Below are positions 18,801-33,830 of a stretch of 64,000 bases of DNA, in pieces (the stretch's first letter is position 1; every line of letters starts with the position of its first letter). This stretch comes from a bacterium. Lineage in GTDB: Bacteria > Krumholzibacteriota > Krumholzibacteriia > G020349025. Made by a program: the position numbers and the translations under genes. The notes below the pieces were generated by a model that was given only the letters and a program-made list of their open reading frames with translations, did not search any database and was not told the DNA's origin. The DNA lies in assembly GCA_031362565.1 (NCBI GenBank), contig JANLSU010000106.1, positions 63,031-127,030 of the forward strand, written 5' to 3'.

Positions 18801-21800
18801 TGGATGGCACGACGCTGCATTCGTTGATGGCGCCGGCAGTGCTCCCAGGCGGCGGGACGGCGACGCTGCGCTTCGCTGCGGCGGCACTCGATGGGGCTCC
18901 GGGCGCCGGGGCGCTGCGCCTGCACCTTGCCGGCACCGAGAACGGCAATGCGTGGAGCGCCGATCTCTCGACCGGCGCCGTGCTGCGGCTCGATGCGGCC
19001 GCCCAACTCGAAATTACCGCCGTGCGCCCCTCCCGGCCACGCGTCACTCGCCGGCAAACTGTCGCTTGGACGGTGCGGGCGGCGGTGCGCAATCATGGCG
19101 GCGATGCGGTGCTGGATGCCGCAACGCTCGGATTCACGCTCGGCGCGGCGGACGTCGCGACTGGGTTCACGGTCACCGCTCCGGCCCACTTCGAATCCGG
19201 CACCACGCTCCTGGTTGCCGGTGCAGCTGACACCTTGCGCTTCGACGTGACGCGAACTCTGGACGCCATCGGTCTGGTCGCTCTGGACGCGACGCTCCAC
19301 GCCCACGATGCCAATAGCGGCACGCCGCTCGTGGTGACGAGCGTCGGTCAGGCGCGTGGCAGCGTGCAGATCGATGCCCCGGCAGAGCCGGTCATTGCCA
19401 CCCTGCAAGCGAGTCAAGCGCTCGTGAGTGCCGGTCAACGATCCGCGTGGCGCGTGCAAGTCACGGTGCGCAATGACGGCGGGTCGCCGTGGCGCGCCGA
19501 CTGGACACGCGCGGCGCTCGTGCTCGGTGCGGCGCCCGATGACAGCATTGCCTGTGGAGCACCGGCCGCACCCCAACTGTTGGATGCCGGCGAGTCCGAA
19601 GGCGCGGTCTTCACGATTCACCGCACCGGCGCCGAACTCGGCGCCGTCGGACTCGTTGCAAGCCTGCCAGGTGTCCAGGAATCGGACGGCGCGGCGATTG
19701 CCGCTCTCCCGAATGCGCCGGTCACCATCGTCGTGCAGCGTCCTGCCGCGGCCAGGCTCGAAACCGCGACGGCGCACACCCAGCGCCCCGGCACTGCCAA
19801 CACCGGTCAAACCGTCCGCTTGGACATCACGGTTCGGAATAGCGGCGAAGCCGATCTGCGGCGTGTCGCCGTACAGGCGCACGCGGATGGTGCGACCCCG
19901 GCGGACAGCCTTCTCGTTGCGGCTGTACCGGGCGGTGGAAGTGTCACGTTGCACTCCCAAGTGCGCTTACGTGACGATGCCGGACCGGCGGCGATTCAAT
20001 TCACGGTCCTGGAAGCGTACGATGCCAACGATTCCTTGACGACGGCCGCCTTCGGTGCGACCACCGCGGCCCACCTCGACTTGCGCGCCGAAACGCCCGG
20101 CAGCTTGGCGCTGACCCTGGTTCCGAGTCAGGGGCGGGTGTCCGCCGGACAGGCGCGCGAGTGGTCGCTGGCCGTGCAGGTGGAAAATGTCGGCGAAGAA
20201 CCGCTGGTGCTGCGCGCGCCGCGCCCGAGCGATATCGAGTTCCAGCGCAGCAACGTCCCGCAAAGCGACTATGTCGTGTTGGCGCCCGCCGCTTTCGACG
20301 AAGGCGGCCTGACGCTCGCCGGCGCCGGCCAAGGGACGCTGCGCTATCGGATCACCCGCACCGGTGATGGCGGCGGCAGCATTGCGATCACGGCCACGGC
20401 GAGTGCGCTGCACGCCAACGATGCCACCGCCCCCGACATGGCAGCCACCGCTGCCGCGACGATCGCCGTCGATGCAGAACCCAGTTTGCGAATTCTCTCG
20501 ACCGATACCCGGACCTGGCGCCGGGACCGCGGTTTCGACGACGACCGCGTCGATGCCGGGCAGGCCTTCGCGGTGCGCGTCGTCGTGGAAAATACCGGCG
20601 GCACCCAACTGGACAGCATCGGCGTCGATGTCGAGTCGCAGCGCGGCAATTCGCATCTCGATGGCCGGCGCTGGCTCGACACGCTCGCACCGGGACAGCG
20701 CGGCGAATTGGAGTTCGCGGTCGTCGGCGGCACTTGGTTGTCGCAGCCCGGCCTGCCGGAAGCTTTCACGGCGCACATCGCCGCCGCCCAGGATCTGAAC
20801 ACGGGCATCTCGGTTCTGCCCGGCGCGGCCGTCGACGCCACGACTTTCGCGTATATCGAGACACCCGCACAGGTCGCGCTCACGGCCTGGATCGACGCTC
20901 CCGATGGCGCTCGCGACGGCGTTCTCTCGGCCGCCCAAGAGTTCATTCTCGCGGCGCGGCTCGACAACGAGGGCAGCGCGGATTTCTCGGCGTCCGGGCG
21001 TGTGGCGCTCGGGTTGCCGGCCGGATATGCCATCGTCGATGGCGATCCAGAGCAATTTGCCGACGCCGGCCAAGTGATCCGGTGGACGTTGCAGGCCGGA
21101 GCGGCGGCGCACGCGTTCAGCGATACCTTGGTCATTGCGCTGGCCGCCGTGCCGCTCGACGAGAATCGTGGCACCCCAGCGATCGTGCGGGTTGGCACGG
21201 CGACGGTCGCCGTCGCGGTGCGCGCCACCGGTGATCTGGCCGCCCTGCTGACGCGTGGCGGTGCGGCGGCGGGTGGCTCGATCTTCGTTTCAACGGGTCA
21301 GACGCTCGACCTCGATGTTGTCGTCCGCGGCGATGCCGACTTGATCGGCCGCGAAGCGGATCTGGTGTTGCCGGCCGGCTGGTCGCCGGCACCGGGGAGT
21401 CCGCCGAAACTCGATCTGCCACCGGGCGCCGAAGCGCGTACGACCGCAGCCGTGCAAGTCGGTCATGCGCCAGGCATGGCCCAAGTCATCCTGCATGCAA
21501 CCGCCGTCGACCGGAACGACGAATCGCCGCGCGCCGCGCTGGATACCCTGCAATTGCAAGTCGTTCGCGCCGCACGGCTGGCGGTGGATGCGGCAATCGT
21601 CGCGCCCGACGAGGCGCGCGATGGGCGGCTCCTGCCGGGCCAAGCGTTTCAAGTCCGCGCCTGGGTGCGCAACCAGGGTGACGCGGCGGTCGTCGCGGCG
21701 CCGGGGAATACGTCCGGCGGCACGCTCCGCCTCATCGACGTGCCCGCGGGGTACGGCGTGCAGGCCGCCGAACAGCCGTACGTCCTGACCGGCCGTGAAG

Positions 21801-22738
21801 CGAGCATCACGTGGAATCTCACCGCGCCTCCGGTCGTGCGGCCGGGTGCGGAGACGATGCGGATCGTTTTCGCCGCTCTGCCGTTCGACGCCAACGCCAT
21901 GCAGGCCGTCGGGCTCGATCCGGATTCGACGATCGCCCGTTGCGTGGTTTCGGTCGCCAACGACGCGGTTGCCGTCGACGCTACCGCCGAGCCAGCCACC
22001 GTGGTGGCGCCGGGCGAGCGCGACGTCACGCTCTTGCACCTGCTGATCACCAATCAGGCTGAAGCCGCGGTGCGCATCGACGCCGTCGGTGTCGCACCCC
22101 TTGCCGACGGCGTCATTCTGCCCGATGCATTCGCCCACTACGTGCTGACGCGCGACGACGATGCGGCGATCCGCGTCGAAGCGCTGCCGTCCGGCAGCTC
22201 CCCGGTCTGGATCGATTTCGGCGCCGCGGGCAATGCGGCGATTCTCGCGCCGGGCGCCACGGCACGTTGGACGTTGCGCGCCGACATCGCGACATCGGCC
22301 GCGGCGCGCACCGTCAGTGCGGCATTGCGGACCAACGCCGCCGGTGCAGTGCTCGTACGGGCCAGTGAATCGAGCTCGGGCGCCGCGGTGCCGGTGCACG
22401 CCGATGCACGCGCCACGCTGGCGTCGGCAGCGGTGCGGGTTTTGGGCGCCGCGCTCGCCGCATACAACGCGCCGAATCCGTTTCACGCCGAACGCGAACC
22501 GACCACCATTCACTACCAAGTGGACGGCGCGAGTGATGTCACGATCCGCATTCAAACCCTGCAAGGCGCCCTCGTGTGGGAAACGCACCGGCACGAGGCT
22601 GCCGTTGGGACGGCGCTCCGCGGCGTCGAATGGGACGGCCGGAACGGCACCGGACAGCCGGTACGGAATGGTGTGTATGTGTGCTCCGTGCAAGTCGGCA
22701 CGCGGGCGACGCGGTTCAAAATCGCGGTGACCCGCTAG
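12875..22738 (+). CDS. Giant (~3290 aa) Ig-repeat surface protein/adhesin with C-terminal FlgD-like domain
   Basis: AGGGAG SD before GTG 12875; signal peptide (AGA-Q); ~11-12 D-x-x-GN...W repeats, ~15 V-x-N-x-G CARDB-like repeats; YNAPNPF...WDGRNGTGQPVRNGVY...KIAVTR. Confidence 0.85.
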   Translation: MLDFLSRRWSLWIVGAAIVLAGRSAGAQGFLSLRIETAPGGNAPDLASTTRVAGDSLRLFAATYDFLGFYAGPAAVDWSIIPGGATLDATQGTTTLVQTSLTGQFHVQAVMDGTTADTGNITVVPGPPSGLAAFASPAFGAPAITSLALSADSSLVLYTGSYDKFSNWTGPIDVAWSLDAPIAAVTPSHATLTVLDPRRTGNGHLWLDAPSLPRLDLPLAVTHGRIASLLVSTTPGGTPLADTTLVAGQTLHLEARAADADGNSVTPFAGATWSATGTGLALGAVNGVQTDALASLPGSARIVATAGAIQTSTGIIRITAGILARLRVSRAPDTYVAVDPATVDADQNFELFALGQDAAGHWLGPVSATWTSTDAAVLHSPTTTGPSAVVDCARIGTARLRLTGAGLAPDSTGAVQVTPGRFARLTIESLGDGTGSEMGALGFSADSVIAFHAVGRDADGNFVGARNALWSLTGPIGSLSTPLGPDVVLLGEHPGTALLTAVDGIETDVAGPITVTAGAPYRLRAEDSLGLALAPRALAPGETASAVAMTLDRDGNQLTAAPVTWGWLGDALALLPGSAAPQYNWTAGRVGQGRLVLAAPGLMADTSATFTVVAGSPARLEMRDALGLPVGARTLSCDALLELHAWALDGSGNELGQVPVTWSVLGTAGSATVAPLAGSATVLRPVTPGVVRVAALHGSGVQAQSGDLTLVPGQITRVTIETAADGSGSRLASRGLAAGDLLPLFAVGRDGQGNFVAPVNANWFESGGIGTLSVTQGTATILLAEHRGRGRVTLTVPLIDGDETGILDVTPGPVAALGIERSPAGPADALGTATVSVDDSLMAFAVVRDVFGNWIATVPAFWSVTGPAGAAQISSPGPATATVLRPQHPAQVQLTATWNGFAALSGPLALVVGRLATVGIETAADGSGFAIGNRTLGAGEVVALYAIGRDALGNLTGAVTAAWSVVGIGGTLDTAWQSAARFTADRPGLCHVTAAYPGVGLATTGALTVTAGTPASLVLERAPGDPFDPFDTTALAAGDSVEAYAVLRDGLGNWVGNVVATWSVLGSPTSAILNPTAAGGVALQARHPGSVRLQATWNGRDAVSGTIDLGAGAPAGTFMMSLTPNTLRAGGPLPALGNGGPVTDAWGNDVADGTRIDVRLTGATGLAGEDLDPVRAGVQRPTSAGHFVFTLVPGALAGPATVDATAGTAAGRAAIALLPPIGIGVLAGSFTPIEWLRGAPFAAHLTLVNPDVLALDLATAELRLDDGNGGAIQTSLAAPVTLQPGMATGVDFVSLDTPGALRAGRYTPRLHVTGQDQLGSPFDLEIGTAGATLDLVDGAVTQVTGHAPLRLTQGTPVHFTVDVLNSGDVAVQLDAARSLLQGGAFAAALAPGSATTLARGTVTRLDFVTTIWPLGATVGDVPLDLELHGTQTGGAFDASVASGTVRVDATAALIADKGALTPVLVPQGASPAPRITVQNAGGSAVTLNTNTQVQIAGRAGGLVTPVRVGPDSAAILDFAPVDLGGLPAGLYSVWLSAQGTQNGAAFAQDVALADSLTLFAPAALTILGIQPSQATVTAGQTASWLLRVVLSNSGATAYRIDAADVHIVLGGIDRTATYTMTHQKPFTSALPPAARDTLDFLVTQTGPDAGLATLEAAVQATDLTTGLPVEANTFTAGKGSLRVQNPAIAAAGVLTLSQPAVVAGQTAPVEVTLTVRNAGEAILDLDPASLAASFVTAPAIAVVPASYTGGPGLAAGESMLLRWTLGPFTAAPGSLQLTATPQFVERNRAALLTCSASTNVPVQGPAAVVVSQANAPASVTVAQAQAWTARFQLTNSGGSSVTVATPRLVFAAPGAATTFGVTPPLTFEDGRPLQLAPGAQGTLAFVINRTDATARRVTIGVACDAVEELSGRALTIANGATATVSVQAPPAVQLVDASLAPARAAVGQVVGFTLDAQNTGESRLDLDATQSWARLVDGTTLHSLMAPAVLPGGGTATLRFAAAALDGAPGAGALRLHLAGTENGNAWSADLSTGAVLRLDAAAQLEITAVRPSRPRVTRRQTVAWTVRAAVRNHGGDAVLDAATLGFTLGAADVATGFTVTAPAHFESGTTLLVAGAADTLRFDVTRTLDAIGLVALDATLHAHDANSGTPLVVTSVGQARGSVQIDAPAEPVIATLQASQALVSAGQRSAWRVQVTVRNDGGSPWRADWTRAALVLGAAPDDSIACGAPAAPQLLDAGESEGAVFTIHRTGAELGAVGLVASLPGVQESDGAAIAALPNAPVTIVVQRPAAARLETATAHTQRPGTANTGQTVRLDITVRNSGEADLRRVAVQAHADGATPADSLLVAAVPGGGSVTLHSQVRLRDDAGPAAIQFTVLEAYDANDSLTTAAFGATTAAHLDLRAETPGSLALTLVPSQGRVSAGQAREWSLAVQVENVGEEPLVLRAPRPSDIEFQRSNVPQSDYVVLAPAAFDEGGLTLAGAGQGTLRYRITRTGDGGGSIAITATASALHANDATAPDMAATAAATIAVDAEPSLRILSTDTRTWRRDRGFDDDRVDAGQAFAVRVVVENTGGTQLDSIGVDVESQRGNSHLDGRRWLDTLAPGQRGELEFAVVGGTWLSQPGLPEAFTAHIAAAQDLNTGISVLPGAAVDATTFAYIETPAQVALTAWIDAPDGARDGVLSAAQEFILAARLDNEGSADFSASGRVALGLPAGYAIVDGDPEQFADAGQVIRWTLQAGAAAHAFSDTLVIALAAVPLDENRGTPAIVRVGTATVAVAVRATGDLAALLTRGGAAAGGSIFVSTGQTLDLDVVVRGDADLIGREADLVLPAGWSPAPGSPPKLDLPPGAEARTTAAVQVGHAPGMAQVILHATAVDRNDESPRAALDTLQLQVVRAARLAVDAAIVAPDEARDGRLLPGQAFQVRAWVRNQGDAAVVAAPGNTSGGTLRLIDVPAGYGVQAAEQPYVLTGREASITWNLTAPPVVRPGAETMRIVFAALPFDANAMQAVGLDPDSTIARCVVSVANDAVAVDATAEPATVVAPGERDVTLLHLLITNQAEAAVRIDAVGVAPLADGVILPDAFAHYVLTRDDDAAIRVEALPSGSSPVWIDFGAAGNAAILAPGATARWTLRADIATSAAARTVSAALRTNAAGAVLVRASESSSGAAVPVHADARATLASAAVRVLGAALAAYNAPNPFHAEREPTTIHYQVDGASDVTIRIQTLQGALVWETHRHEAAVGTALRGVEWDGRNGTGQPVRNGVYVCSVQVGTRATRFKIAVTR

Positions 22739-22742: not shown

Positions 22743-24659
22743 ATGATGATGCTGGCACGGAAGTCCTGGATCCTACTCGCGTGCATGCTCGCGACGACCG
22801 CGCATGCCGGCGGCACCGCCAATGGCGGGACCGAATCGAATCTGAGCTTGGGAGCCACGAGCCGCGGGATCGGACTCGGCGGCGCGTTCCTGGCGAGCGT
22901 CGACGACGCGAGCGCCGTGTACTGGAATCCGGCCAAGCTGGCGAGCCTCGAACGCGGCAGCGTCATTCTGACTCACATGCCGATCGGCTTCGGTGACGCG
23001 ACTCTGAGTTTTGCCGGCGTCGCGTATCCGACCCTCGGTGCCGGCACGTTTGCTTTCGGGTTCCAGCACCTCTCCACCGATGGCATTCAGGCCTACGACG
23101 CCACGAGTCAGGCGCTCGGCAGCCTCGAATATTCGGAGACCGCGCTCTATGCCGGTTATGCCCACGCGATCGCCGCCGGCACGCTGGGTGCGCTGCAAGT
23201 CGGCGCGACCGCGAAGACGTTCACTCAAAGTCTAACGCCTTGGTCGAGCACCGGCGCCGGACTCGACTTGGGTTTGGCGTGCACGCCGCGCCGCTTTCCG
23301 GATCTCGGCTTGGCGTTCGTGTGGCGGGATGCGATCGCCCCGCATGTGCGGCTCGATCAAACCTCGGATGCCGCACCCGCGACATTGCAATTCGCCGGCA
23401 CCTGGCGGACCCGCGCCACGCGTACGACAACGCTGGCGCTGAACGCCGGTGTCGATCACACCGGCCCGCTCGGCTGGTCGCCACGCCTCGGACTCGAAGC
23501 CGGTTATGGTTCGCATCTGCAGTTGCGGCTCGGTTCGTCCCGCAACGGCGTCGCCTTCGGCCTCGGCGTGACCTGGCAGAATGCGGCGCTCGACTATGCA
23601 TTCCTGGGCCACGAGTCGGCGGCCACCCAGCCGGTCTCGGTGCGCACGGAGTGGGGCATGCGGCTCGAAAACCGCCTCGCGGCGCGCACGACGGCGCGCG
23701 AGGCGGCGCTGCGGGCGCAATTGCAAGACCGGCTCGAGGCCCGCCTCGATGCGGCGCAGGCGGCATTCGATCGTGGGGACTATGCGGCAGCGGTGGACGA
23801 GTGGAAGGTCGTGGCCGGGTTGGATCCCGCCGACGAACGGGCCGAGCGTGGCATTCAAGCCGCGGGTGCCAAGCTGGCGGAAACCCAGGCGCGCGATCTC
23901 GCCGATCGCGAACAGGTGGCGGCGCACACCGCCCAGTTCGAACTCGGGCTGCGCTACTACGGCCAGAGCGAGTATGCGTTGGCGCGCGACGTGTGGGCGC
24001 AACTGCGCCAGCAGGACCCGGCCAACACCGAAGTGCAACGCTATCTGGACAAGAACGAGAAGGCGTTCCGCGACCAGCTCCGGGCCCAATCCGACGAAGC
24101 GCACCGGCTCGAAATCGCCGGCGACTGGGTCGACGCACTCGCGGCCTGGACCCGCATTCGGGCCACCGACAATCAACGCGCCGACGCCGAAGCAGCGCTC
24201 GAACGCTGTCGCATGGGGCTCGAACGGCAAAATGCCCGCCGCTGGGATGCCAGCCGCGGCTCGAATGCGAACGTCAACGCCGGTACCAACGCCATCGCCA
24301 AGGCGGCGCCGGTATCGAAAGCCGCCGCCGCACCGTTCCGCGACGCCGTCGCGGCGTATTCGAGCGGTGAGATCAGCCGCGCCGTGACGTTGTTGCGCGA
24401 GGTTCGCCGGTTGGATCCCGCCAATCAGGAAGCCGAGCGCTTGTTGGCGAAAGCCGAGCGCCAACTGCTGCCCTTGGGTGACGAGGATCGCGCCCGGGTG
24501 CGCGAGATGTACCTGCGCGGGATGAGTTTCTTCACCGCCAATCAATTCGACAAGGCGATCGAAGCCTGGTCCAAGATTCTCGATGTCGATCCGGGCAATA
24601 CGAGCGTGTACCAGAACATCCGCGAAGCCCGCGCGCGCCTGCGTGCCCTGCAGCCTTGA
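22743..24659 (+). CDS. PorV-like beta-barrel fused to C-terminal coiled coil and TPR repeats
   Basis: AGGAGG SD; signal peptide; LGATSRGIGLGGAFLASVDDASAVYWNPA; LDYAF; several TPRs (e.g. YLRGMSFFTANQFDKAIEAWSKILDVDPGN). Confidence 0.8.
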   Translation: MMMLARKSWILLACMLATTAHAGGTANGGTESNLSLGATSRGIGLGGAFLASVDDASAVYWNPAKLASLERGSVILTHMPIGFGDATLSFAGVAYPTLGAGTFAFGFQHLSTDGIQAYDATSQALGSLEYSETALYAGYAHAIAAGTLGALQVGATAKTFTQSLTPWSSTGAGLDLGLACTPRRFPDLGLAFVWRDAIAPHVRLDQTSDAAPATLQFAGTWRTRATRTTTLALNAGVDHTGPLGWSPRLGLEAGYGSHLQLRLGSSRNGVAFGLGVTWQNAALDYAFLGHESAATQPVSVRTEWGMRLENRLAARTTAREAALRAQLQDRLEARLDAAQAAFDRGDYAAAVDEWKVVAGLDPADERAERGIQAAGAKLAETQARDLADREQVAAHTAQFELGLRYYGQSEYALARDVWAQLRQQDPANTEVQRYLDKNEKAFRDQLRAQSDEAHRLEIAGDWVDALAAWTRIRATDNQRADAEAALERCRMGLERQNARRWDASRGSNANVNAGTNAIAKAAPVSKAAAAPFRDAVAAYSSGEISRAVTLLREVRRLDPANQEAERLLAKAERQLLPLGDEDRARVREMYLRGMSFFTANQFDKAIEAWSKILDVDPGNTSVYQNIREARARLRALQP

Positions 24660-24685
24660 TCCCGCCCTTCCTTTGGAGCATCGCT

Positions 24686-27600
24686 ATGAGCAGTCGCAAC
24701 GGACGGACCGAGCGCCTCGAGATCGCCGCCGACGAGCGCCATCTCTCGGACGTTCGCGACTTCATCGATCGCACCTGTGCCGCGTGTGGCTTTGCGCCGC
24801 GGGCGATCGCCAATATCCGGCTGGCGGTCGACGAGGCCTGCACCAATGTCATCAAGCACGCCTACCCGAATGGCGGCCCCGGTGCGGCAAGCGCCAGGCT
24901 CGGCATCGCGGCCGGCGCGCACCGCGGCTGGCTCGAGGTGCGCATCGTCGATCAAGGCAAGCCGTTCGAAGGCCAGATCGACCTGCCCCAGCTTGGCGAA
25001 CTGGTGGAAGCGCGACGCAAGGGCGGCTTCGGCATGTTCCTGATGCACCGGCTCATGGACGAAGTGCGCTACGAAACGACCCCGGCAGGCAACGAATGGA
25101 TTCTGCGCAAGCGCCTGCCGCAACCGCCTTCGACCTTTGCGCGGCGCATGCGCCTGCGTTACGCGCTGCAGGCGAGCCTCGGGATTGTCGCCATCAGCGT
25201 CTTGGCGGTCACGCCACTCTGGCTGCGCGAAGGGCGCCAGCGTGAGCGCGCCGACTTGCAGGCACTGCGGGCGCTGGCTTTCGGTCTCGCCGAAGCGGCG
25301 CGGCCGGCACTCGTACAGCGCGCCGAACTCACCCCCGAGCAAACGCATTTGTTCGAGGCGGTACTGGCGCTCGGGCGCGAGGAGCCACGCATCCTGGCGG
25401 TCGATGTCGTGGATCGCGCCGGAACGATTTGGGCGGCGGATCGCGCTGCCGCCACCTTCACCCACTTCATCGAACCGGCCGGCTTGACGGCGGCCGATGC
25501 CGACGGGTTCCGGCAGGCGCGCGAGCGCGTCGACGGGCACGCGGTCCTGCATCTCGCAGTGCCGGTGCGGATGGGCAACGGCGCGACCGAAGTCGGGACG
25601 GTGCATCTCTCGGTGCGCCGCGACGAGATCGAGGCCGAAGTGCGCGCCGCGCGCGCCCGCTTGGCAAGTGGGGCACTGGCCGTGGATGCGCTGGCCCTGC
25701 TGCTCGTCGGCGCCGCCCTCACGGCTTTCCTGCGGCCCTTGCAGCGGCTCGTCGACGGAGTTCGCGGCATGGCGTCCGAAGGCGCTGATTTGGCGGAAGA
25801 CGGCCCCGGCGAGATCGGTTCCATCGCGGCGGCCTTCAACGACATGAATGCCCGTTACAAGGCCGCCCGCGAAACCGCCGCCGACCACGAACGCTTGCAG
25901 CAAGACCTGCAGGTCGCGCGCGAGATTCAGACGGCGATTCTGCCGCAGCACGTGCCCGACATTGCGGGCTATGAGATTGGCCGCTTGTACCGGCCGGCCG
26001 GCGAAGTCGGCGGCGACTACTACGATTTCTTGGATGTAGGCGACGGGCTGACCGGCGTCGTCGTGGCGGATGTCGCCGGCAAGGGCGTGCCGGGGTCGCT
26101 CGTCATGGGCATGTTGCGGACGGCTCTGCGGCTCGAAACCCGGCGCAACGCCAGCGCCGGCGACGTGCTGTCGCGTCTGCATCAATTCCTCGCCGCCGAC
26201 ATGCGCAAGGGAATGTTCGTGACGATGTTGTACGTGGTGCTCGACACGCGGCACCGGGTCGTGAGCTACGCTTCGGCCGGCCACACGCCCATGGTGCTGT
26301 ATCGCGCCGGCAAGGACGAAACCTTTTGTTTGTCGCCCAAGGGACTGCCGGTCGGCCTCGCCGGATCGGACACCGCAATGTTCGAAAAGGAACTCGACGT
26401 GGAGCGTCTGCGGCTGCGGACCGGTGATCTTTTGTTGCTCTACACCGACGGCATCACCGAGGCCACCAATGCAGCGGGCGAGGCGTATGGCGAAGAGCGG
26501 CTGGTGGCGGCCGTCAAACGCTTCGGGCGCGAATCGGCGGACGATTTCGTTCGGGCGCTCGAGGCGGACCTCGCCGAGTTCACTGGCGGTATGGCGCTCA
26601 CTGATGATCTGACGCTGGTCGCGATCAAGGAGAAGCAGGGAGCGCCGGAAGTCGGCGGCGAAACGTTTCGCAAGCTCGTTGACGCCATCGACGCCAAAGG
26701 TGTGCCGGTGGCGGATGCGTGCCGGCGGTTTGGCGTATCACCCTCGACCTACTATCGTTTGAAGCGCGTCGCGGGCGATGACAGCGAACCGCAACAGTTG
26801 TCGATGGAAAAGGGTGCCGCACTTCGCCGTCTGGCCATGGCGCGCCGCGACTTGGGTGCGCGCGAGATCGCCGCTTTGCTGCGCACCCCGGAGTGGGGCA
26901 GCATCGACCTTGCACCGACGCGCATCCACGTCGAATTGCGCCGCATGGGAATCGACCTGCCGGTGAGTGCAGTGCCGGCGATGCCGGCGCCGGGTTCAGC
27001 TGCGGCGCTGCCGATGGCGGATGACACCGCAACCGAAGCTCCAAACAGCAACGGCGCCGACAGCAGCGCGGTTGCGATGTCGGAAACATGGCTCGATGCA
27101 GGCGGATTGCGCGGTCTCCTTGCAGCGCCGGCCGCCGGTCCGGGCGCCGCGCTGTTGCAACTCGAGGGTTGTATCGACAGTACGTCATGCGATGCGCTGG
27201 AGAGCCTGCTCGCGACGGCAACCGGTGCCGGTCACGCTCTGGTCGTCGATCTGGCCGAAGTGGCGTACGTGAGTAGTCGAGGCTGGGGCCTGTTGGCGGC
27301 CGCGAGTGCGCGCGCCGTGGGTGGCTTGGCGCTCGCCGAGATGCGTTCCGATGTCTTCGACGTCTATCGAATGCTGGGTTTCGAGTCGATTGTACCGTCC
27401 GCGGCCGACCGCGATGCGGCGCGGGCGCGTCTGTTGCCGGCGGCTCGCAAGGCGGCTTCGAATGCATCGCCCGGCGCCGCATCCAAGTCGAAGGCCGCAC
27501 CCACGACGGCGATCGTGCCGTGCAAGGTGGCGTTCGATGCCGCCGCCCCGGACGATGCCGGTGCGTCGCTGCGCTGCCGCGTTGGGCACGCGGGGCGCGA

Positions 27601-28489
27601 TGGGGAAGTGGCGGTGATCGCCCTCGAAGGCATCCTCGACACGGTGAGCGCGCAATTGTGTGCCCGGATGTTCTCCGAACTCGCGCTCCGCGAACGCACC
27701 GCGGTGCTGATCGACCTGTCGTGCATCGAGTTCGTGAGCAGTGCCGGTTGGGGATGTCTGACGGCGTTCGCAGCCGAGCGCGCCCGCATCGGCAGCGCCG
27801 TGCGCTTGTTCGGGATGAGCGCCTCGGTGGCGCGCATCTATGAATTGCTGCACTTGGCAGCGGTGCTGCCTTCCGACGACATCCTGGCGGACGCGTTGGT
27901 GGCCTGCGGCGCCACCGAAGTTGCAGCTCCGGCGCGCGTCGACGCGACCACGGTGGCGCCCACCGCGTCACCAAGCCAACCGGTTGGTGCGGCGCACGGT
28001 GCTAGTGCGGTGGGCATCGAAATCGAAATCGGCGCTTTGCAGGCGCGACTCGAACCCTATGGAACCAGTGGCCGGGCGCATCGCCTGGCGCTCCGCGGCA
28101 CGTGGCGTGGTGACGCGGGAGCGTCGTTCGAGGCCTGGCTCGGCGCACATGCGACGCCGGTCGACCTGCTGCTGGTCGACGGCCGGGGCCTCGAAAGCGT
28201 CGACGCAGAAGCCTGGGATGTGTTGCGCCGGCACGCCGAGAGTCTTGCGACGCACGGCGGCCAAGTGTGCGTGGTGGCGAGCGCCGCAACGGCGCCCGCA
28301 GTCGACGCCGGCCTGCACGTCCACCGTTCGGTGGTGGAGGCGCTACGCACCCAGCAGAGCCGCCCGGTACGGCTGGAGACCGTTCGCGTCGAAGACAGCG
28401 ATTTCAGCAAGGACGCGGAGATCCGGCGTGAGGGCTGGAACGCTTATGTCGACCTGCTCCGGCAGGCATTCCGAGAGGACGCCCTGTGA
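24686..28489 (+). CDS. Membrane partner-switching protein: RsbW-type HATPase-2TM-HAMP-SpoIIE(PP2C)-HTH-3xSTAS
   Basis: LAVDEACTNVIKHAY, DQG, GGFGMFLM; VGGDYYDF, VADVAGKG, YTDGITEA, DDLT; VADACRRFGVSPSTYYR; DLAEVAYVSSRGWG and DLSCIEFVSSAGWG. Confidence 0.9.
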   Translation: MSSRNGRTERLEIAADERHLSDVRDFIDRTCAACGFAPRAIANIRLAVDEACTNVIKHAYPNGGPGAASARLGIAAGAHRGWLEVRIVDQGKPFEGQIDLPQLGELVEARRKGGFGMFLMHRLMDEVRYETTPAGNEWILRKRLPQPPSTFARRMRLRYALQASLGIVAISVLAVTPLWLREGRQRERADLQALRALAFGLAEAARPALVQRAELTPEQTHLFEAVLALGREEPRILAVDVVDRAGTIWAADRAAATFTHFIEPAGLTAADADGFRQARERVDGHAVLHLAVPVRMGNGATEVGTVHLSVRRDEIEAEVRAARARLASGALAVDALALLLVGAALTAFLRPLQRLVDGVRGMASEGADLAEDGPGEIGSIAAAFNDMNARYKAARETAADHERLQQDLQVAREIQTAILPQHVPDIAGYEIGRLYRPAGEVGGDYYDFLDVGDGLTGVVVADVAGKGVPGSLVMGMLRTALRLETRRNASAGDVLSRLHQFLAADMRKGMFVTMLYVVLDTRHRVVSYASAGHTPMVLYRAGKDETFCLSPKGLPVGLAGSDTAMFEKELDVERLRLRTGDLLLLYTDGITEATNAAGEAYGEERLVAAVKRFGRESADDFVRALEADLAEFTGGMALTDDLTLVAIKEKQGAPEVGGETFRKLVDAIDAKGVPVADACRRFGVSPSTYYRLKRVAGDDSEPQQLSMEKGAALRRLAMARRDLGAREIAALLRTPEWGSIDLAPTRIHVELRRMGIDLPVSAVPAMPAPGSAAALPMADDTATEAPNSNGADSSAVAMSETWLDAGGLRGLLAAPAAGPGAALLQLEGCIDSTSCDALESLLATATGAGHALVVDLAEVAYVSSRGWGLLAAASARAVGGLALAEMRSDVFDVYRMLGFESIVPSAADRDAARARLLPAARKAASNASPGAASKSKAAPTTAIVPCKVAFDAAAPDDAGASLRCRVGHAGRDGEVAVIALEGILDTVSAQLCARMFSELALRERTAVLIDLSCIEFVSSAGWGCLTAFAAERARIGSAVRLFGMSASVARIYELLHLAAVLPSDDILADALVACGATEVAAPARVDATTVAPTASPSQPVGAAHGASAVGIEIEIGALQARLEPYGTSGRAHRLALRGTWRGDAGASFEAWLGAHATPVDLLLVDGRGLESVDAEAWDVLRRHAESLATHGGQVCVVASAATAPAVDAGLHVHRSVVEALRTQQSRPVRLETVRVEDSDFSKDAEIRREGWNAYVDLLRQAFREDAL

Positions 28490-29226
28490 GGCGCATTGCA
28501 ATTGCGGCTGCCAAGGGCGGCACCGGTAAAACCACCACTGCCGTCGCACTCGCGCACGGCCTCGCGCTGGCCGGCGAGCGCGTGTTGCTCATCGATTGCG
28601 ATCCACGCCGCGACTCGAGCTTGCATTTCGGCCTGTCGCCCGAACCCGGACTCGCAGCCTGGCTGCGGGGCCGTCCGGCGCGCGTCATGGAAGTGCGTGC
28701 CGGCCTCTGCGTCCTGGATAGCGGTGGCGAGGCGCTTGCCGATCTCGAACTGACACTCGGCACCGATCCGCTCGAGGAACTGCGGCTTGGGCGCGCCCTG
28801 GACACGCTGCAGGATGTCGATTATGTGGTGCTCGATTGTCCGGCCGGCGTCGGACCCATCGCGCGCGCGGCGCTCCGCGCCAGCCACGAGGTCCTCGTGC
28901 CACTCTGCGCCGACTATTTGAGTTTGGCGAGCGCCGGCCTGCTGCTCGAGCGCCTGGTCCAGATGCGGGGCACGAACGGCGCCGCGCCACGTCTTCTGGG
29001 ACTCCTGCCGACATTCTATGACGCCGACGCTCCGAGCGCCCTGAACGTCGATTCCGTGCTTGCGGAACTGCACGCCGGCCGTGTCCTCCAGACGCGCATC
29101 GCGCTTTGCGATGGGCTCCGGGCGGCACCGGCACGCAGAGGCACGATCTTCGATTGCGAACCGCTATCGCGCGCGGCGTTGGACTACGTCTCGTTGCTCG
29201 ACGAGGTGCGGGCTGCCGCCGCCTGA
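28486..29226 (+). CDS. Orphan ParA/Soj family ATPase
   Basis: Deviant Walker A KGGTGKTTT, LLIDCDP, DYVVLDCPA; GTGA overlap with the upstream gene. Confidence 0.88.
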   Translation: MRRIAIAAAKGGTGKTTTAVALAHGLALAGERVLLIDCDPRRDSSLHFGLSPEPGLAAWLRGRPARVMEVRAGLCVLDSGGEALADLELTLGTDPLEELRLGRALDTLQDVDYVVLDCPAGVGPIARAALRASHEVLVPLCADYLSLASAGLLLERLVQMRGTNGAAPRLLGLLPTFYDADAPSALNVDSVLAELHAGRVLQTRIALCDGLRAAPARRGTIFDCEPLSRAALDYVSLLDEVRAAAA

Positions 29227-29377: not shown

Positions 29378-29785
29378 ATGCGGTCCCTCGAGTACAGTGT
29401 CGAGACCGTGGGTGCGAAGAAGACGATCGCGATCTTGTCGCTCGACGGTTATGTCGACAGCGCGACCTCGCTGAACATGGACGAGGCTATCGACTCGATC
29501 CTGCAGCAGCGGGTCTATCAGATCGTGGTCGATTTGACCAAGGTGAGCTATATCAGCTCGGCCGGATGGGGTGTGTTCATCAGCAAGATCAAGGACATCC
29601 GTGAGAACAACGGTGGCCTGAAGATCGCGGGGATGCGTCCCGACGTCCGCGACGTCTTCGACTTGCTCGGCTTTGGCCACATCATCGAAGCCCACGATAC
29701 GGTGCAGGACGCGGTCAACGCGTTCGAAACGCAAAGCGGGCGCGACAAGCGCGAGGTCGTCACCGGCGGCCGTCGCACCGTCTGA
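29378..29785 (+). CDS. STAS domain anti-sigma factor antagonist
   Basis: LSLDGYVDS, VVDLTKVSYISSAGWG, VRDVFDLLGF; strong SD. Confidence 0.92.
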   Translation: MRSLEYSVETVGAKKTIAILSLDGYVDSATSLNMDEAIDSILQQRVYQIVVDLTKVSYISSAGWGVFISKIKDIRENNGGLKIAGMRPDVRDVFDLLGFGHIIEAHDTVQDAVNAFETQSGRDKREVVTGGRRTV

Positions 29786-29941: not shown

Positions 29942-32143
29942 GTGCTCTTCGCACTTCACTTGGCGACGCAATCGCACTGGCCGCTCTTCGCTCTCCTGCC
30001 GGCGGCGCTGGTTCTGGCGCTCTGGGCGTATCGTCGAACCACCCCACCGCTCGCACCGCGACAACGCCTCGTACTGACGGCGTTGCGGGCGACCGCGTAC
30101 GCGTGCTTGTGCCTCGTGCTCGCGAGTCCGGTTTGGAACCGCGAGCGGCACGACCCGCAGCGGGCGCGAATTGCGGTGCTCATCGATGAGTCGGCGAGCA
30201 TGTCGAACAACGACGGACCCGGCGGGCCGACGCGGCTCGAGCGGGCGCGTACCGCGCTCGGGACACTGCGGGATGCACTGCGTGGCGCGCCGGTGGATCT
30301 CGAAGTCGTGCCGTTCGCGGCGGCGCCGGACGCGCCCCAGTCTGCTGAGGCGTATTTGGCGGCGGCCCGCACCGCCGTGGGACCGGCAACGGATCCGTTG
30401 GGAGCCATGGCGGCGACCGCCGACCGGCTGCGCGGCCAGAATCTGCAGGCCATCGTGCTGCTGAGCGACGGCCGCCCCACCCAGGGTGGTCTCGATCCCG
30501 GCTCGCGCACCGATCCGGGCCAGCCGGTTTTTGCGATCGGCCTCGGAGATTCACTGGCCGGGCGCGATCTGGCCATCGGCCGCTGCGAGTACAGCTCCAT
30601 CGCTTATGTCGAAAGCGAAGCCGAGATCGATGTGCGCATCGAGTCGAGCGGCTTTCGCGGCCAAGCGTCGACGCTGCACTTGCGCCAAGGCGAGCGCGAC
30701 ATTTTCTCGACGCACTTGCGCTTCGATCAGGATCGCAGCCGCGTCTCGGTGCGCGTGCCCGTGCAGTTGCACGAGCCCGGCCGCCAGCGCTACCGGCTCG
30801 TTCTCGATGCCTTGCCGGGCGAACGGACCGAGCGCAACAACGCCCGCGAGATCAGCATCGAAGTGTTGCGCAACCGGATTCGCGTTCTGGTGGTGGCGGC
30901 GCGGCCGGATTGGGATGTGGCGTTTTGGGCCCGCGCGCTGCGCAGCGATCCCAGCGTTCGGCCGACCGTAGTGACGCAAGATGTGAACGGCGGATGGCGC
31001 AATGCCGAAGACGGCCGCGCTTTCGAATGGCCGCGCGGTGTGGCGTGGACGCGTGACTACGATCTCTACATTTTAGGGACCCCGGGCACCGCGTGGCGCG
31101 GTGACTCCGCCAAGGAATTGCGCACCGCCGTTGAGCGCGGCAAGGGATTGCTGGTGCTGGGCGGACGTGACGGAGTGCTCGGCGATGCGGCGTCCTTCGA
31201 GGCAATCGGTCCGCTCTTGCCGGTGGCGCGCCTGCGGGTGCGCGGGACGCGTTTTGGACAATCCTTACCGCGCCTCGCACCCCAAGGCAGGCTCCACCCG
31301 GTGACCGGTGCGCTCTTACCGCTCGCGGATGCGGCCGGCACTCTCACCGGCCTGCCGCCGCTTCTCGGCCAAGCGGACCTTGCCGCCAACGTCGGTGCCC
31401 TCACATTGCTCTCGACCGACGCCAACCCGGCGCTGCCATTGCTTGTCGTGGGGCGAGCCGGCGAAGGCCAGGTGGCGGTGGTCAACGGCTTTCCCCTTTG
31501 GCGGTGGGGATTCGCCGCCAACCCGGTCGTGCGCCAATCGGTCGGCGCGTTCACGAGCGGCATGGTGCGCTGGCTGACGCAGCCGCGTGACATTACCGCG
31601 GTGCAAGTGACGACTCCGAAACCGGTGTACGAAAGCGGTGCAGCGGTCGAGATCTACGCCCACGTGCTCGATCCGCAATATGCACCGCTCGCCGACGCGC
31701 AGGTGCGCACCGATGTGCGGCGCGTCGACGACGGCAGCCCGAGCGGCAATGCGTTGTTGGAGCCGCGTGGCGGGCAGCCGGGCGAATACCAGGCGTCGAT
31801 TCCTGGCCTGGCGGCTGGGGAGTACGAAGCCGAAGCAGTCGCGACCCACGGCGGGCGGGAAGTCGGCCGGGCACGGGTGCGGTTTACCGTCGATGCCTAT
31901 TCGATCGAATTCGCCGACGCGCGCCAGGACGTGGATTTCCTGCGCGAAATCGCGGCGCGCACCGGCGGCCGCTATGTGGGGCCGGAAGCAGTGGCCGGCC
32001 TGGTGCAGGACTTGCCGCACGCGGCGCGCGACATCCTGGTGCGCAGCGAAATTGAAATCTGGAACACGACGCCGCTCTTCGTGCTGTTCGTTCTGGTGTT
32101 GGGTGTCGAGTGGCTGATGCGCAAACGGTTCGGTTTGCTCTGA
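29942..32143 (+). CDS. VWA domain membrane protein with Ig-like and GATase-like domains
   Basis: N-terminal TMs; MIDAS LIDESASM, LLSDG; GKGLLVLGG; C-terminal TM ending EWLMRKRFGLL. Confidence 0.8.
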   Translation: MLFALHLATQSHWPLFALLPAALVLALWAYRRTTPPLAPRQRLVLTALRATAYACLCLVLASPVWNRERHDPQRARIAVLIDESASMSNNDGPGGPTRLERARTALGTLRDALRGAPVDLEVVPFAAAPDAPQSAEAYLAAARTAVGPATDPLGAMAATADRLRGQNLQAIVLLSDGRPTQGGLDPGSRTDPGQPVFAIGLGDSLAGRDLAIGRCEYSSIAYVESEAEIDVRIESSGFRGQASTLHLRQGERDIFSTHLRFDQDRSRVSVRVPVQLHEPGRQRYRLVLDALPGERTERNNAREISIEVLRNRIRVLVVAARPDWDVAFWARALRSDPSVRPTVVTQDVNGGWRNAEDGRAFEWPRGVAWTRDYDLYILGTPGTAWRGDSAKELRTAVERGKGLLVLGGRDGVLGDAASFEAIGPLLPVARLRVRGTRFGQSLPRLAPQGRLHPVTGALLPLADAAGTLTGLPPLLGQADLAANVGALTLLSTDANPALPLLVVGRAGEGQVAVVNGFPLWRWGFAANPVVRQSVGAFTSGMVRWLTQPRDITAVQVTTPKPVYESGAAVEIYAHVLDPQYAPLADAQVRTDVRRVDDGSPSGNALLEPRGGQPGEYQASIPGLAAGEYEAEAVATHGGREVGRARVRFTVDAYSIEFADARQDVDFLREIAARTGGRYVGPEAVAGLVQDLPHAARDILVRSEIEIWNTTPLFVLFVLVLGVEWLMRKRFGLL

Positions 32144-32174: not shown

Positions 32175-33830
32175 ATGTCTTTCGCGCCGGTCGCCGCGCT
32201 CGCGGCGTTGGTTCTGAACGAGGTCCTGTACGACCCGCCCGGCGTCGATGCCGGACGCGAATTTGTCGAGATCCTGAACGTTTCGAACGCCGACGTGCCG
32301 CTTGCCGGTCTCGAACTCGAGACCGGTGATGGGGCGCATCCCGGTGTGTGGCGGCATTCTTGGAGCGGCACAGGCGGCGTTCTGGCGCCCGGTGCGTTCT
32401 TGGTGGTCGGTGGCGACAGCATCCACACTCCCGAACATCTCGCCGCGGACCTGCAGAACGGGCCGGATGCATTGCGGCTGCGGCAGGACGGCGAAGTCCT
32501 GGATCGCTTGGGCTATGGCGCCCTCAACGATGCTGCGATGTTCGAGGGCCGGCCGGCGCAAGACGTCGCTAATGCCGGCCTGGCGCGTCTTCCCGATGGC
32601 CGTGACACCGGCGACAATCTGGCCGATTTCAGTCCGGCGCCGCCGTCGCCGGGACGCCGCAATCAGCTCTTGCACAACTTGCGCGTCACCCTCGTGGCGC
32701 CCGATCCGGCGACCGCGTGGCCCGGTCGAGCGCAGCGGGCCCGGGTCACGGTGCGCAACACGGGCGGCGAGACGGTGCCGTCGTGGGCGCTCGTTGCCTG
32801 GCTCGAACGCGCCGTCGGCGAGCCGGTGACCGGCGAGCCGGTCTTGGCGGTGGCGGAAACGCTCGCCACTCCGGGTCCGGGCGAGGCGATTGCCGCGCAT
32901 GACAGCAGCGTCGTCGGGCTCGAATGGCTGGGGTCGCTCGGACTCGTGCGGATCGGTGCCGCATTGCGAACGGCGGATGACGACAGTCTCGACGATCGGG
33001 CCAGCGTTTGGGTGCGCGTCGGTCCCGGTGACATCGTCATCAACGAAATCCTCTATGCGCCGCAGAGCGGTGCACCGGAATGGATCGAACTCTGGAATCG
33101 CGGCACGCGGCCGGTGCGGCTCGGTGGGTTCACGATGGCGGATGCGAGCGGCCGCCGCGCGACGCTTCGAGCCCGCGTCGACTTGGCCCCCGGGGCGTAC
33201 GCCATCGCGAGCGCCGACTCCACGGCGGTCGTCGCCGGCATCGCGTTCGGCACACCACGGATCGAGGCCACGCCGTGGCCGTCGCTCAATGATTCAGACA
33301 ACGACGCGGGCTACGCCGACACGGTCGTGTTGCGCGATTCGCTGGGAATCGTCGCCGATGCAATTCGCTATGCGGCAGCCGGTGGCGAGCGCGGCCGCAG
33401 CATCGAACGGCAGAGCGTCGAGCCCACCGCCCGCGGTGTGGCGTGGGTGCCGTCGACGTCGCAAAGCGGCACCACGGCCGGCGCGAAGAATAGTGTCAAC
33501 GGACCGCCACGCCTCGACCCGCGGCTCAATCTCGCTCCGAATCCCTTTTCGCCGAACGGCGACGGCCACGACGACCAACTCTGGATTCGCGCCGAAGTGC
33601 CTTTGGGTGCGAGCGGGTTTCGCGCCGAGGTCTTCGATCTCGACGGCCGCTGCCGCCGGCGCCGCGGCGCCGACGAATTGGGGCCGGGGTCCCGCGAACT
33701 CGCCTGGGATGGCGGTGCAGACGGCGGAGCATCTCTCCCCACAGGTGTCTACGTGCTCCGATTCGAGTGGTACTCGAAGTCCGAGGGGCGCCATCAGGTG
33801 CGCCGTGCCGTCGGGCTGGTGCGGCCATGA
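32175..33830 (+). CDS. Tandem lamin-tail-domain protein with C-terminal NPFSPNGDG/FlgD-like sorting domain
   Basis: LVLNEVLYDP..EFVEILN and IVINEILYAP..EWIELWN; PNPFSPNGDG...WDG...LPTGVYVL. Confidence 0.85.
   Translation: MSFAPVAALAALVLNEVLYDPPGVDAGREFVEILNVSNADVPLAGLELETGDGAHPGVWRHSWSGTGGVLAPGAFLVVGGDSIHTPEHLAADLQNGPDALRLRQDGEVLDRLGYGALNDAAMFEGRPAQDVANAGLARLPDGRDTGDNLADFSPAPPSPGRRNQLLHNLRVTLVAPDPATAWPGRAQRARVTVRNTGGETVPSWALVAWLERAVGEPVTGEPVLAVAETLATPGPGEAIAAHDSSVVGLEWLGSLGLVRIGAALRTADDDSLDDRASVWVRVGPGDIVINEILYAPQSGAPEWIELWNRGTRPVRLGGFTMADASGRRATLRARVDLAPGAYAIASADSTAVVAGIAFGTPRIEATPWPSLNDSDNDAGYADTVVLRDSLGIVADAIRYAAAGGERGRSIERQSVEPTARGVAWVPSTSQSGTTAGAKNSVNGPPRLDPRLNLAPNPFSPNGDGHDDQLWIRAEVPLGASGFRAEVFDLDGRCRRRRGADELGPGSRELAWDGGADGGASLPTGVYVLRFEWYSKSEGRHQVRRAVGLVRP

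Follow-up and report, generated by a model that had tools for sequence, protein, structure and literature searches.

A putative bifunctional partner-switching receptor with tethered STAS domains in a Krumholzibacteriota genome

Partner switching is usually taught as a circuit of three or four separate proteins that ends in a sigma factor. Here we describe a receptor gene, at positions 24686 to 28489 of a 64,000-nucleotide stretch of a Krumholzibacteriota genome (contig JANLSU010000106.1 of assembly GCA_031362565.1, positions 63,031 to 127,030 of the forward strand; hereafter the window, in whose numbering all positions are given), that joins a kinase domain, a sensor between two transmembrane (TM) segments, a HAMP domain, a PP2C phosphatase domain, a helix-turn-helix (HTH) region, three STAS domains and a conserved C-terminal helix in one chain. 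The likely explanation, which we hold with moderate confidence, is that the product is a probably dimeric receptor of the inner membrane that both phosphorylates and dephosphorylates STAS switch domains. From the domains and their motifs, the logic of the topology, conservation, synteny, modelled folds and an interface predicted between the C-terminal tail and a ParA-like ATPase, we infer the enzymatic steps, the signal and the output of such a receptor.

The family shows the extent to which partner switching can be rewired: the input, both opposing enzymes and several putative copies of the substrate are brought together in one membrane receptor. No sigma factor adjoins it. The family is found in a conserved envelope cluster, in candidate phyla that have received little study.

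Integrity, conservation and forms of the receptor

The gene runs on the + strand from an ATG at 24686 to a TGA at 28489 as a single unbroken frame of 1267 codons. The preceding gene stops at 24659, leaving 26 nucleotides before the ATG, and GGAG lies 8 nucleotides 5' of this start. Base composition is even along the gene, and the product is 100% identical to a recorded protein (P0002). The features of the receptor, and of the two genes that follow it, are listed below with the evidence for each.

24686..28489, + strand: receptor gene, 1267 residues, kinase-TM-sensor-TM-HAMP-PP2C-HTH-STASx3-C-terminal helix (open reading frame (ORF), translation, Pfam)
24722..25111, + strand: RsbW/SpoIIAB-type GHKL serine-kinase domain, residues 13-142, predicted cytoplasmic (HATPase_c_2, alignment to RsbW 6m36)
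25163..25228, + strand: TM1, about residues 160-181 (Kyte-Doolittle peak 1.6-1.9)
25229..25660, + strand: predicted periplasmic sensor loop, about residues 182-325, weakly Cache-like (sCache_3_2 below cut-off; position between both TM segments)
25661..25735, + strand: TM2, about residues 326-350 (Kyte-Doolittle peak up to 2.3)
25727..25846, + strand: HAMP domain, residues 348-387 (Pfam 27.3 bits, cut-off 25)
26042..26629, + strand: SpoIIE-type PP2C phosphatase domain, residues 453-648 (Pfam; sequence matches in PDB)
26675..26965, + strand: double HTH region of transposase type, about residues 664-760 (HTH_23/HTH_28; NCBIfam IS3/IS481)
27140..27412, + strand: STAS1, residues 819-909, candidate acceptor Ser864 (STAS_2 37 bits, STAS 31.6 bits; model pLDDT >90)
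27602..27871, + strand: STAS2, residues 973-1062, candidate acceptor Ser1019 (STAS 41 bits; SpoIIAA-like model)
28025..28363, + strand: STAS3, about residues 1114-1226, decayed, without acceptor serine (family alignment; model)
28394..28483, + strand: conserved C-terminal helix, residues 1237-1266 (invariant columns; predicted helix)
28486..29226, + strand: ParA/Soj-like ATPase, 246 residues (AAA_31/CbiA; Soj profile match; KGGTGKT)
29378..29785, + strand: free-standing STAS protein, 135 residues, YISSAGWG (ant_ant_sig 69.7 bits, above cut-off)

A search of a protein collection returned 297 relatives, the closest of the 120 listed being 60% identical to the window protein; named records of metagenome-assembled genomes (MAGs) in which relatives occur bear the labels Latescibacterota, Krumholzibacteriota, Eisenbacteria, KSB1, Calditrichota, FCPU426 and others. 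HATPase_c_2, SpoIIE and STAS occur together in 79 of these 120 listed protein clusters (precomputed Pfam annotation of the best 120 of the 297 relatives), and the full order from the kinase to the third STAS domain was found again in 20 distinct loci of MAGs labelled Latescibacterota or Krumholzibacteriota. This last count covers STAS-tailed loci with a whole C terminus, six and a further 14 new ones, two duplicates having been dropped. Because the same fusion is conserved in many independent assemblies, it is real and not an artefact of assembly. The initial annotation had proposed one intact frame with this domain order, and Pfam, hydropathy and the family alignment agree on it, with a correction to the third STAS domain that is given below; a rival reading, in which an assembly or frameshift error had joined separate kinase, phosphatase and STAS genes, has next to no probability in the face of the unbroken frame, the even base composition and the recurrence of the fusion in distinct loci and listed clusters. 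Residue conservation was read from an alignment of 18 full-length relatives, 32-63% identical to the window protein, with a second set of 71 sequences for the serines of the STAS domains.

A contig scan with the single protein found no relative; an alignment-based scan recovered relatives, and scanning the loci with profiles cut from the family alignment separated three forms. The core-only form (kinase-TM-sensor-TM-HAMP-PP2C-HTH) has about 830-900 residues and no fused STAS domain, in the TPR-tailed form this core is extended by a long acidic linker with TPR repeats at the C terminus, and in the STAS-tailed form, to which the window protein belongs, by three STAS domains with a conserved motif at the C terminus. 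In the short relatives a gene for a free STAS protein always stands directly after the receptor gene, for which reason the free STAS protein is taken to be the ancestral substrate; the ancestral unit looks like a bifunctional receptor with a free STAS substrate, working by the logic of SypE and SypA. Core only, core with TPR repeats, and core with three STAS domains and a predicted ParA-docking tail make up a natural comparison set. It could be used to test how tethered substrates alter a bifunctional phospho-switch in threshold, memory or buffering, and whether a STAS switch drives a ParA-type ATPase, for which the predicted contact between tail and ATPase provides a concrete and cheap hypothesis.

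Individual loci vary further. In long-form relatives (loci L002, L003, L004, L010, L261-L275 and L280) the ParA gene is followed by a TPR gene of ~385 residues and two tandem free STAS genes; in the window the gap between the ParA and STAS genes is 151 nucleotides, with neither a TPR gene nor a second STAS gene. In KSB1- and Cytophagia-labelled relatives the TPR module is fused to the C terminus of the receptor behind a long acidic linker. The ortholog at L278, from one genome of the phylum, is apparently broken at the HTH region, its frame of 811 residues ending in an unrelated Arg/Ser-rich tail, and no STAS or ParA gene was found within 3.5 kb downstream of it. In the longer free STAS proteins of other lineages (L011, L017, L019 and L025; stop-to-stop frames of 224-257 residues) there is no Pfam HTH match at E up to 0.01.

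Two putatively opposed catalytic domains, predicted to be cytoplasmic

The N-terminal domain matches HATPase_c_2 over residues 13-142 with 92 bits (E 3.8e-26, cut-off 27.4; Pfam) and RsbW of Bacillus subtilis (6m36) at E 2.7e-13. DEACTN (residues 49-54), DQG (89-91) and GGFG (113-116) are aligned with that structure, and we take them to be the N-box, G1 (DxG) and G2 motifs. As it reaches only 54.5 bits against the NCBIfam RsbW equivalogs, for which 145 are required, the domain is by these scores a member of the HATPase_c_2 family and not an ortholog of RsbW. The SpoIIE/PP2C match spans residues 453-648 with 165 bits (E 2.3e-48, cut-off 25; Pfam), and sequence matches in PDB include RssB (3es2), Rv1364c (3ke6, E 1.3e-14) and SiaA (6k4e). 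Its motifs are GGD (442-444), DVAGKG (462-467), TDG (587-589) and DD (640-641). In SpoIIE the metal ligands are D628 (with G629), D746 and D795 (PMC5468089), and these would correspond, judged by the position of the motifs, to D462, D588 and D640/641 of the receptor.

Conservation of both sites is close to complete. Among the 18 relatives E50, N54, G91, G113, G114 and G116 of the kinase domain are invariant and D89 is kept in at least 90%; in the phosphatase D444, D447, D462, G465, K466, G467, D588, G589, D640 and D641 are all invariant. The motifs that the initial annotation had named are thus all present, with key residues invariant or at least 90% conserved, and its description of an intact HATPase and of a PP2C with metal-binding motifs agrees with the alignments to RsbW and to PP2C structures.

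Hydropathy gives two TM segments. The 20 residues ahead of TM1 contain four Arg and no acidic residue, the stretch RRMRLR preceding the membrane, and the HAMP domain follows directly behind TM2. A HAMP domain stands on the cytoplasmic side after the last TM helix. Since HAMP follows TM2 and the TM segments number two, topology places the kinase and the PP2C domain both in the cytoplasm, as had been proposed, and the loop of ~145 residues between them in the periplasm. The loop scores 19.5 bits against sCache_3_2 (cut-off 28.4), and this family (PF17203) is precomputed for many relatives. No REC domain is matched by Pfam in the receptor, and the NCBIfam RssB match is limited to the PP2C part (392-593).

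A different reading of the N-terminal domain is that HATPase_c_2 acts mainly as a binding module of the anti-sigma type, which would hold a sigma factor or the receptor's own HTH region at the membrane; unphosphorylated tethered STAS domains would then be built-in antagonists and displace the bound partner, as in CrsR/RpoS and Rv1364c/SigF, and kinase activity would serve only as a reset. The matched homologues RsbW and SpoIIAB are indeed anti-sigma factors, CrsR and HsbR bind RpoS through a domain of the same kind and Rv1364c binds SigF (sources cited below), and Sigma70_r4_2 is precomputed at the HTH position in some short relatives, 6 of the 120 listed (best 120 of 297). However, a Pfam scan of 26 large + strand ORFs plus 10 sequences revealed no sigma-factor gene in the window, none is conserved in the syntenic cluster, the HTH region of the window protein matches transposase-type families and not sigma region 4, and the strict conservation of the ATP-binding motifs argues for catalysis. 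We regard this reading as unlikely, and favour the bifunctional kinase and phosphatase. The earlier claim that the polypeptide holds a whole circuit nevertheless goes too far: neither a sigma factor nor another output was found in the chain or beside it, and the free STAS protein and the ParA-like ATPase are conserved companions encoded apart.

Tethered STAS domains as candidate substrates

STAS1 and STAS2 both carry the motif Y-[IV]-S-S-x-G-W-G, whose two serines (S863/S864 and S1018/S1019) vary in none of the 18 relatives and in none of the 71 sequences. In the alignment with TM1442, S1019 stands opposite the serine behind the Asp of MDSAG, a position that we take to be the phosphosite of TM1442 and SpoIIAA. 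In AlphaFold models built on the 71-sequence alignments the three domains share one strand-helix pattern, with values of the predicted local distance difference test (pLDDT) above 90, and are separated by Ala/Pro-rich linkers of about 50-60 residues, for which pLDDT falls below 50. By fold search, the STAS2 model superimposes on SpoIIAA (1tid_B) with Z 19.1 and a root mean square deviation (rmsd) of 1.8 Å over 118 aligned residues. The free STAS protein reaches 101 bits on the profile of the internal STAS2, every other STAS of the genome scoring 60 or less; by this measure no other STAS encoded there comes nearly as close to the internal domains.

The third domain required more care. The C-terminal residues 1080-1267 (188 residues), scanned alone, have no Pfam match with an E of 0.1 or lower, and a tighter fragment reaches STAS_2 with 15 bits (E 0.028), below the Pfam cut-off of 29.2. 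Its counterparts in relatives are clear Pfam STAS domains in five of the five scanned (E 1e-10 to 1e-20). The fold search of the 478-residue model (Foldseek-ranked) was dominated by STAS2, and STAS3 was folded and searched separately: it was modelled with pLDDT 89.2 and a predicted template modelling score of 0.70, the model leaning on an alignment that contains true STAS relatives, and matches 1tid_B with Z 14.1 and rmsd 2.6 Å (110 of 119 residues aligned), the top 12 fold matches all being STAS. In the models all three domains have the STAS fold, the fold search having covered STAS2 and STAS3. At the acceptor site, STAS3 has Asp-Ala where more distant relatives have Ser-Ser, a loss that the window protein shares with its five closest relatives (all six members of the subclade that have the domain), with the Trp kept. 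This replacement rules STAS3 out as an ordinary phospho-acceptor. For the three STAS domains claimed earlier, fold and ancestry hold throughout, on the evidence of the model and the relatives, whereas only two can be conventional acceptors; likewise, the suggestion that the receptor carries its own phospho-acceptors would fit STAS1 and STAS2, with their invariant Ser-Ser at the position aligned to TM1442, and does not fit STAS3.

In a tree of 39 STAS rows only a domain-2 clade (99/96) and a domain-3 clade (96/80) were resolved, and STAS3 of the window sits on a branch of length 10. An origin of the tethered from the free STAS domains was not recovered in this tree, the outgroups lying inside its unresolved part.

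Tethered STAS domains need not be substrates. They could be structural or oligomerisation modules, of the kind of stressosome scaffolding or ligand-binding STAS, with the tasks of assembling the receptor and placing the ParA-like ATPase, the free STAS protein alone being phosphorylated. That STAS3 lacks the serine and yet has a confidently modelled fold and a conserved Trp is in keeping with such a role, as is the fact that short relatives manage with a free STAS only; STAS domains of RsbS and RsbR form scaffolds, and stressosome chains are among the fold matches. The conservation of Ser-Ser in STAS1 and STAS2 in all 71 sequences, and its retention in STAS3 of more distant relatives, is on the other hand hard to account for without phosphorylation, which makes a purely structural role quite unlikely. 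We therefore retain STAS1 and STAS2 as candidate substrates of the bifunctional receptor.

The C-terminal helix and the ParA-like ATPase

Within the C-terminal helix D1243, G1250, W1251 and L1258 are invariant among the 18 relatives and Y1254 is kept in at least 90%. The gene for the ParA-like ATPase begins with a GTG that overlaps the receptor stop (GTGA), preceded by GAGAGGA 8 nucleotides 5' of it. Its product matches AAA_31 with 86 bits and Soj (1wcv) at E 5e-51 by profile, and the Walker A motif KGGTGKT is invariant. Identification as BcsQ or as the ParA_partition equivalog was ruled out by NCBIfam scores below the cut-offs (BcsQ, the best match, 80 bits, cut-off 157.85; ParA_partition 73, cut-off 180). 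Tail motif and ParA gene are found together in 20 of 20 long-form loci, the ParA gene lying directly downstream; among the forms without the tail motif, a ParA gene is present only at L019 and L023, where the receptor tails, compared by eye, end in a loosely similar aromatic-x-x-Tyr. When metagenomes were scanned with the ParA alignment, the result was 80 ParA loci of a generic kind (26-40% identity), none with a domain of the receptor family; the scan was uninformative on co-occurrence.

The complex of two ATPase copies, ATP and receptor residues 1222-1267 was predicted with an ipSAE (interaction prediction score from aligned errors) of 0.81 in three of three runs, compared with 0.00 for the best of three controls. 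This mark is reached by 116 of 157 solved complexes and by 2 of 215 mismatched pairs, a calibration that holds only roughly here because our own alignments were used and ATP was included. At least 95% of the contacts agree between runs, the pLDDT of the partner is at least 76, and only one of the two ParA copies is contacted. The predicted contacts involve D1243, W1251, Y1254 and L1258 of the tail and H24, L28, G30, F48, R71, T220, P226 and A231 of the ATPase, and all of these ATPase residues are invariant among eight ParA orthologs. On these models, the tail helix seems to dock the ParA-like ATPase.

A bolder proposal, to which we give little weight, is that the long form is a signal-gated, ParB-like adaptor, a membrane receptor with a DNA-binding module derived from a transposase and a helix at its C terminus that docks ParA. 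The phospho-register of the three tethered STAS domains would decide whether the ATPase is engaged and, by way of it, the nucleoid or a position in the cell. Were it true, envelope sensing would be coupled to where the receptor, and the surface apparatus of type IX secretion system (T9SS) type encoded around it, are placed or how they are partitioned, and the partner switch would have positioning, not transcription, as its output.

The HTH region

The HTH region is kept in the short, TPR-tailed and STAS-tailed forms alike and contains a conserved motif, CxxxxVSPSTYYR. When residues 664-702 are scanned alone, HTH_23 (26.1 bits) and HTH_28 (25.8 bits) are found just above their cut-offs; in a scan of the whole protein the HTH scores are 21 bits and fall under the cut-off. 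NCBIfam models of transposase N termini match the region far under their cut-offs, namely IS3 (661-758, E 8e-7) and IS481 (663-757, E 4e-5).

These matches, and the presence of the region in every form of the family, lend some colour to the idea that direct DNA binding is the main output, the protein being a membrane-tethered regulator like ToxR or CadC with kinase and phosphatase that only tune it; the phospho-state of the neighbouring STAS domains would decide whether the transposase-derived double HTH is masked or free. The marginal HTH scores, together with a DNA target that has to be assumed, render this very unlikely as the principal output, although it overlaps with the bifunctional STAS switch that we prefer and does not exclude it.

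A mechanism and the points that weigh against it

In the bifunctional receptor as we picture it, an RsbW-type kinase and a HAMP-coupled PP2C, both predicted to be cytoplasmic, would flank a Cache-like sensor in the periplasm. A cue from the periplasm or the envelope, transmitted through TM2 and HAMP, would shift the balance between phosphorylation and dephosphorylation; HAMP would switch the PP2C, as in other HAMP-PP2C sensors, and TM1, hung directly on the kinase by a tether of ~15 residues, may also take part. The probable targets are Ser864 and Ser1019 of the tethered STAS domains and the conserved serine of the free STAS protein encoded two genes downstream, with the serine-less STAS3 as a possible non-phosphorylatable copy for kinase binding or as an adaptor. 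Carried on long disordered Ala/Pro-rich linkers, the tethered domains could be local competing substrates or kinase-binding inhibitors, and as such might set a threshold for the diffusible STAS protein, buffer it, or clamp the kinase when unphosphorylated. STAS3 and the tail would organise the ParA-like ATPase, with the C-terminal helix as its predicted holding site. Candidates for the output are the partners of the free STAS protein, the HTH region and the ParA-like ATPase. By analogy, the logic has precedents in SypE/SypA, HsbR/HsbA, CrsR/CrsA and Rv1364c.

A number of considerations count against this account. Whether the kinase reaches the tethered STAS domains, the free one or both is a step of inference, and the Cache-like assignment of the sensor is weak, with a score under the Pfam cut-off. 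Peptide-bound complexes from the ParA family have been solved (the structures retrieved include Soj, MinD and ParF), and part of the high ipSAE value of the tail-ParA prediction may therefore be likeness. The link to ParA is missing from the short and TPR-tailed forms, so that it cannot be the core output, and since all 20 loci with tail and ParA are kin within one clade, their co-occurrence counts as roughly one evolutionary event. The window copy is also the most eroded of its clade: STAS3 is decayed, one free STAS gene is present and not two, there is no TPR gene between ParA and STAS, and the tail is not Lys-rich. Finally, none of four genomes of the window's own family has the gene, and its importance in this organism is for that reason uncertain.

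Relation to known partner-switching systems

Rv1364c of Mycobacterium tuberculosis resembles the receptor in uniting a sensor, PP2C, GHKL kinase and STAS domain in one polypeptide, and phosphorylates and dephosphorylates its own STAS domain (PMC7693655). It is, however, a soluble protein arranged as sensor-PP2C-kinase-STAS, with one STAS domain only, whereas in the receptor the kinase is N-terminal to the two TM segments, the periplasmic sensor and HAMP, and an HTH region, three STAS domains and a predicted ParA-docking tail are present as well; a SigF-like partner of the receptor is not known. Domain order and membrane topology rule out assignment to the Rv1364c type.

SypE of Vibrio fischeri has an N-terminal RsbW-like kinase, a REC domain and a C-terminal PP2C and acts on the free STAS protein SypA, in a polysaccharide and biofilm locus with no sigma factor involved (PMC10120452). 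The receptor shares the N-terminal position of the kinase, with the PP2C C-terminal to it and a signalling domain in between; SypE is cytoplasmic, with REC in the middle, and lacks the TM segments, HAMP, HTH region and fused STAS domains that the receptor has. HsbR/HsbA of Pseudomonas aeruginosa and CrsR/CrsA of Shewanella oneidensis are REC-PP2C-kinase proteins acting on a free STAS protein, and STAS proteins of the HsbA/CrsA type switch between partners that include FlgM, HsbD and RpoS (PMC6482189). Common to these and the receptor is a PP2C with a kinase/anti-sigma domain in one protein that sets, or in our case would set, the phospho-state of a STAS domain. In HsbR and CrsR the order is REC-PP2C-kinase, input comes by phosphorelay, and tethered STAS domains and an HTH region are missing, whereas the receptor has a periplasmic sensor. 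The lack of a REC match in Pfam rules out both the SypE and the HsbR/CrsR type.

SiaA, of the SiaA-SiaB-SiaC system of P. aeruginosa, offers a membrane-bound HAMP-PP2C that opposes a kinase on a STAS-like switch with a non-sigma output. The HAMP-PP2C part of the receptor matches the SiaA model (NCBIfam NF038263) over residues 332-647 at E 2.5e-18; its 66 bits, compared with an equivalog cut-off of 700, exclude identification as SiaA. Kinase SiaB and switch SiaC are moreover separate proteins. As for the ATPase, positioning ATPases of the ParA/MinD family (ParC, PpfA) couple to signalling receptors through a short conserved segment (PMC11407121), and the receptor is similarly tied to a ParA-like ATPase, the binding here being predicted. 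The known partners of such A/D-ATPases bind mostly through an N-terminal region (PMC11407121); the receptor would bind through a C-terminal helix and, as cargo, is of the partner-switching kind and not a chemoreceptor array.

On the architectures and scores above, the receptor resembles Rv1364c, SypE, HsbR/CrsR and SiaA in its working and is a member of none. Fusion of a kinase and a phosphatase alone would not surprise specialists, and the initial annotation's emphasis on kinase, phosphatase and STAS in one polypeptide as a novelty does not survive the comparison with Rv1364c, SypE and HsbR/CrsR; because such fusions, with or without STAS, are already characterised, the receptor is a variant and not a new kind. 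New relative to the known systems are the register of several tethered STAS domains, the series of natural forms and the predicted docking of ParA. In a literature search outside which subscription journals lay, and from the parts of papers that it returned, no description of the kinase-TM-sensor-TM-HAMP-PP2C-HTH-STASx3 architecture was found.

Distribution

Among 150 sampled other genomes of the phylum, 68 contain an ortholog (best E at or below 1e-120) and two contain fragments. The distribution is patchy by family: nearly all sampled genomes of five families and five of nine of a sixth have the gene, which is absent from the window's own family (0/4) and from two others (0/10 and 0/61). Relatives at 54-60% identity were seen only among metagenome proteins. 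The window genome itself has one copy of the receptor, and separate, classical RsbV-, RsbW- and RsbU-like genes as well. At C60:70279-72658 it encodes a split version, in which a sensor-HAMP-PP2C gene is followed by a separate HATPase_c_2 gene, and at C75:57271-60583 a classical trio of STAS, kinase and PP2C genes.

Gene neighbourhood

The genes from 12674 to 33830 all lie on the + strand with short gaps between them, in the order giant protein, PorV/PorQ-like protein, receptor, ParA/Soj-like ATPase, free STAS protein, VWA-match protein and lamin-tail-domain (LTD) protein. The members that have not been listed above are as follows.

12674..22738, + strand: giant surface-type protein, up to 3354 residues, CARDB, T9SS-like C-terminal domain (CARDB; weak matches to PorU tail and FlgD-Ig)
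22743..24659, + strand: PorV/PorQ-like outer-membrane protein with C-terminal TPR, 638 residues (NCBIfam PorV_fam; TPR_2)
29942..32143, + strand: membrane protein with weak VWA match, 733 residues (VWA_2 E 5e-4, below cut-off; TM-like segments at both ends)
32175..33830, + strand: LTD protein, 551 residues (LTD E 2.5e-30)

The start of the giant ORF is uncertain, as its first ~35 codons look non-coding. The product of 22743-24659 scores 87.7 bits against PorV_fam (cut-off 90, E 1e-24, residues 34-298), and for the VWA-match protein no NCBIfam family name was found. Synteny was assessed by tblastn in 80 related loci, many of them too short to show all neighbours: the loci with a match numbered 21 for the C-terminal part of the giant protein, 26 for the PorV-like protein, 38 for the free STAS protein, 7 for ParA, 8 for the VWA protein and 5 for the LTD protein. 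The VWA protein is syntenic in long-form and in Eisenbacteria-labelled short-form loci (the 8 together). The neighbours make up a conserved cluster of envelope genes, and the receptor most likely senses or controls the state of this cluster. A scan of 22000-34500 for promoters and terminators gave 0 promoter-like (1.0 expected) and 6 terminator-like sites (7.9 expected), which is not above chance.

Elsewhere in the window, a second PorV/PorQ-like gene at 5908-6819 shares the N-terminal motif DDASAVYWNPA with that at 22743-24659, and the product of 4193-5911 ends in a 'GxYxL...V' tail similar to that of the LTD protein. Genes for a PrkA serine kinase (AAA_PrkA and PrkA) and SpoVR lie at 53133-57894 on the + strand with an ORF at 55262-56383 between them, a set that we take to be the usual prkA-yeaH-spoVR arrangement.

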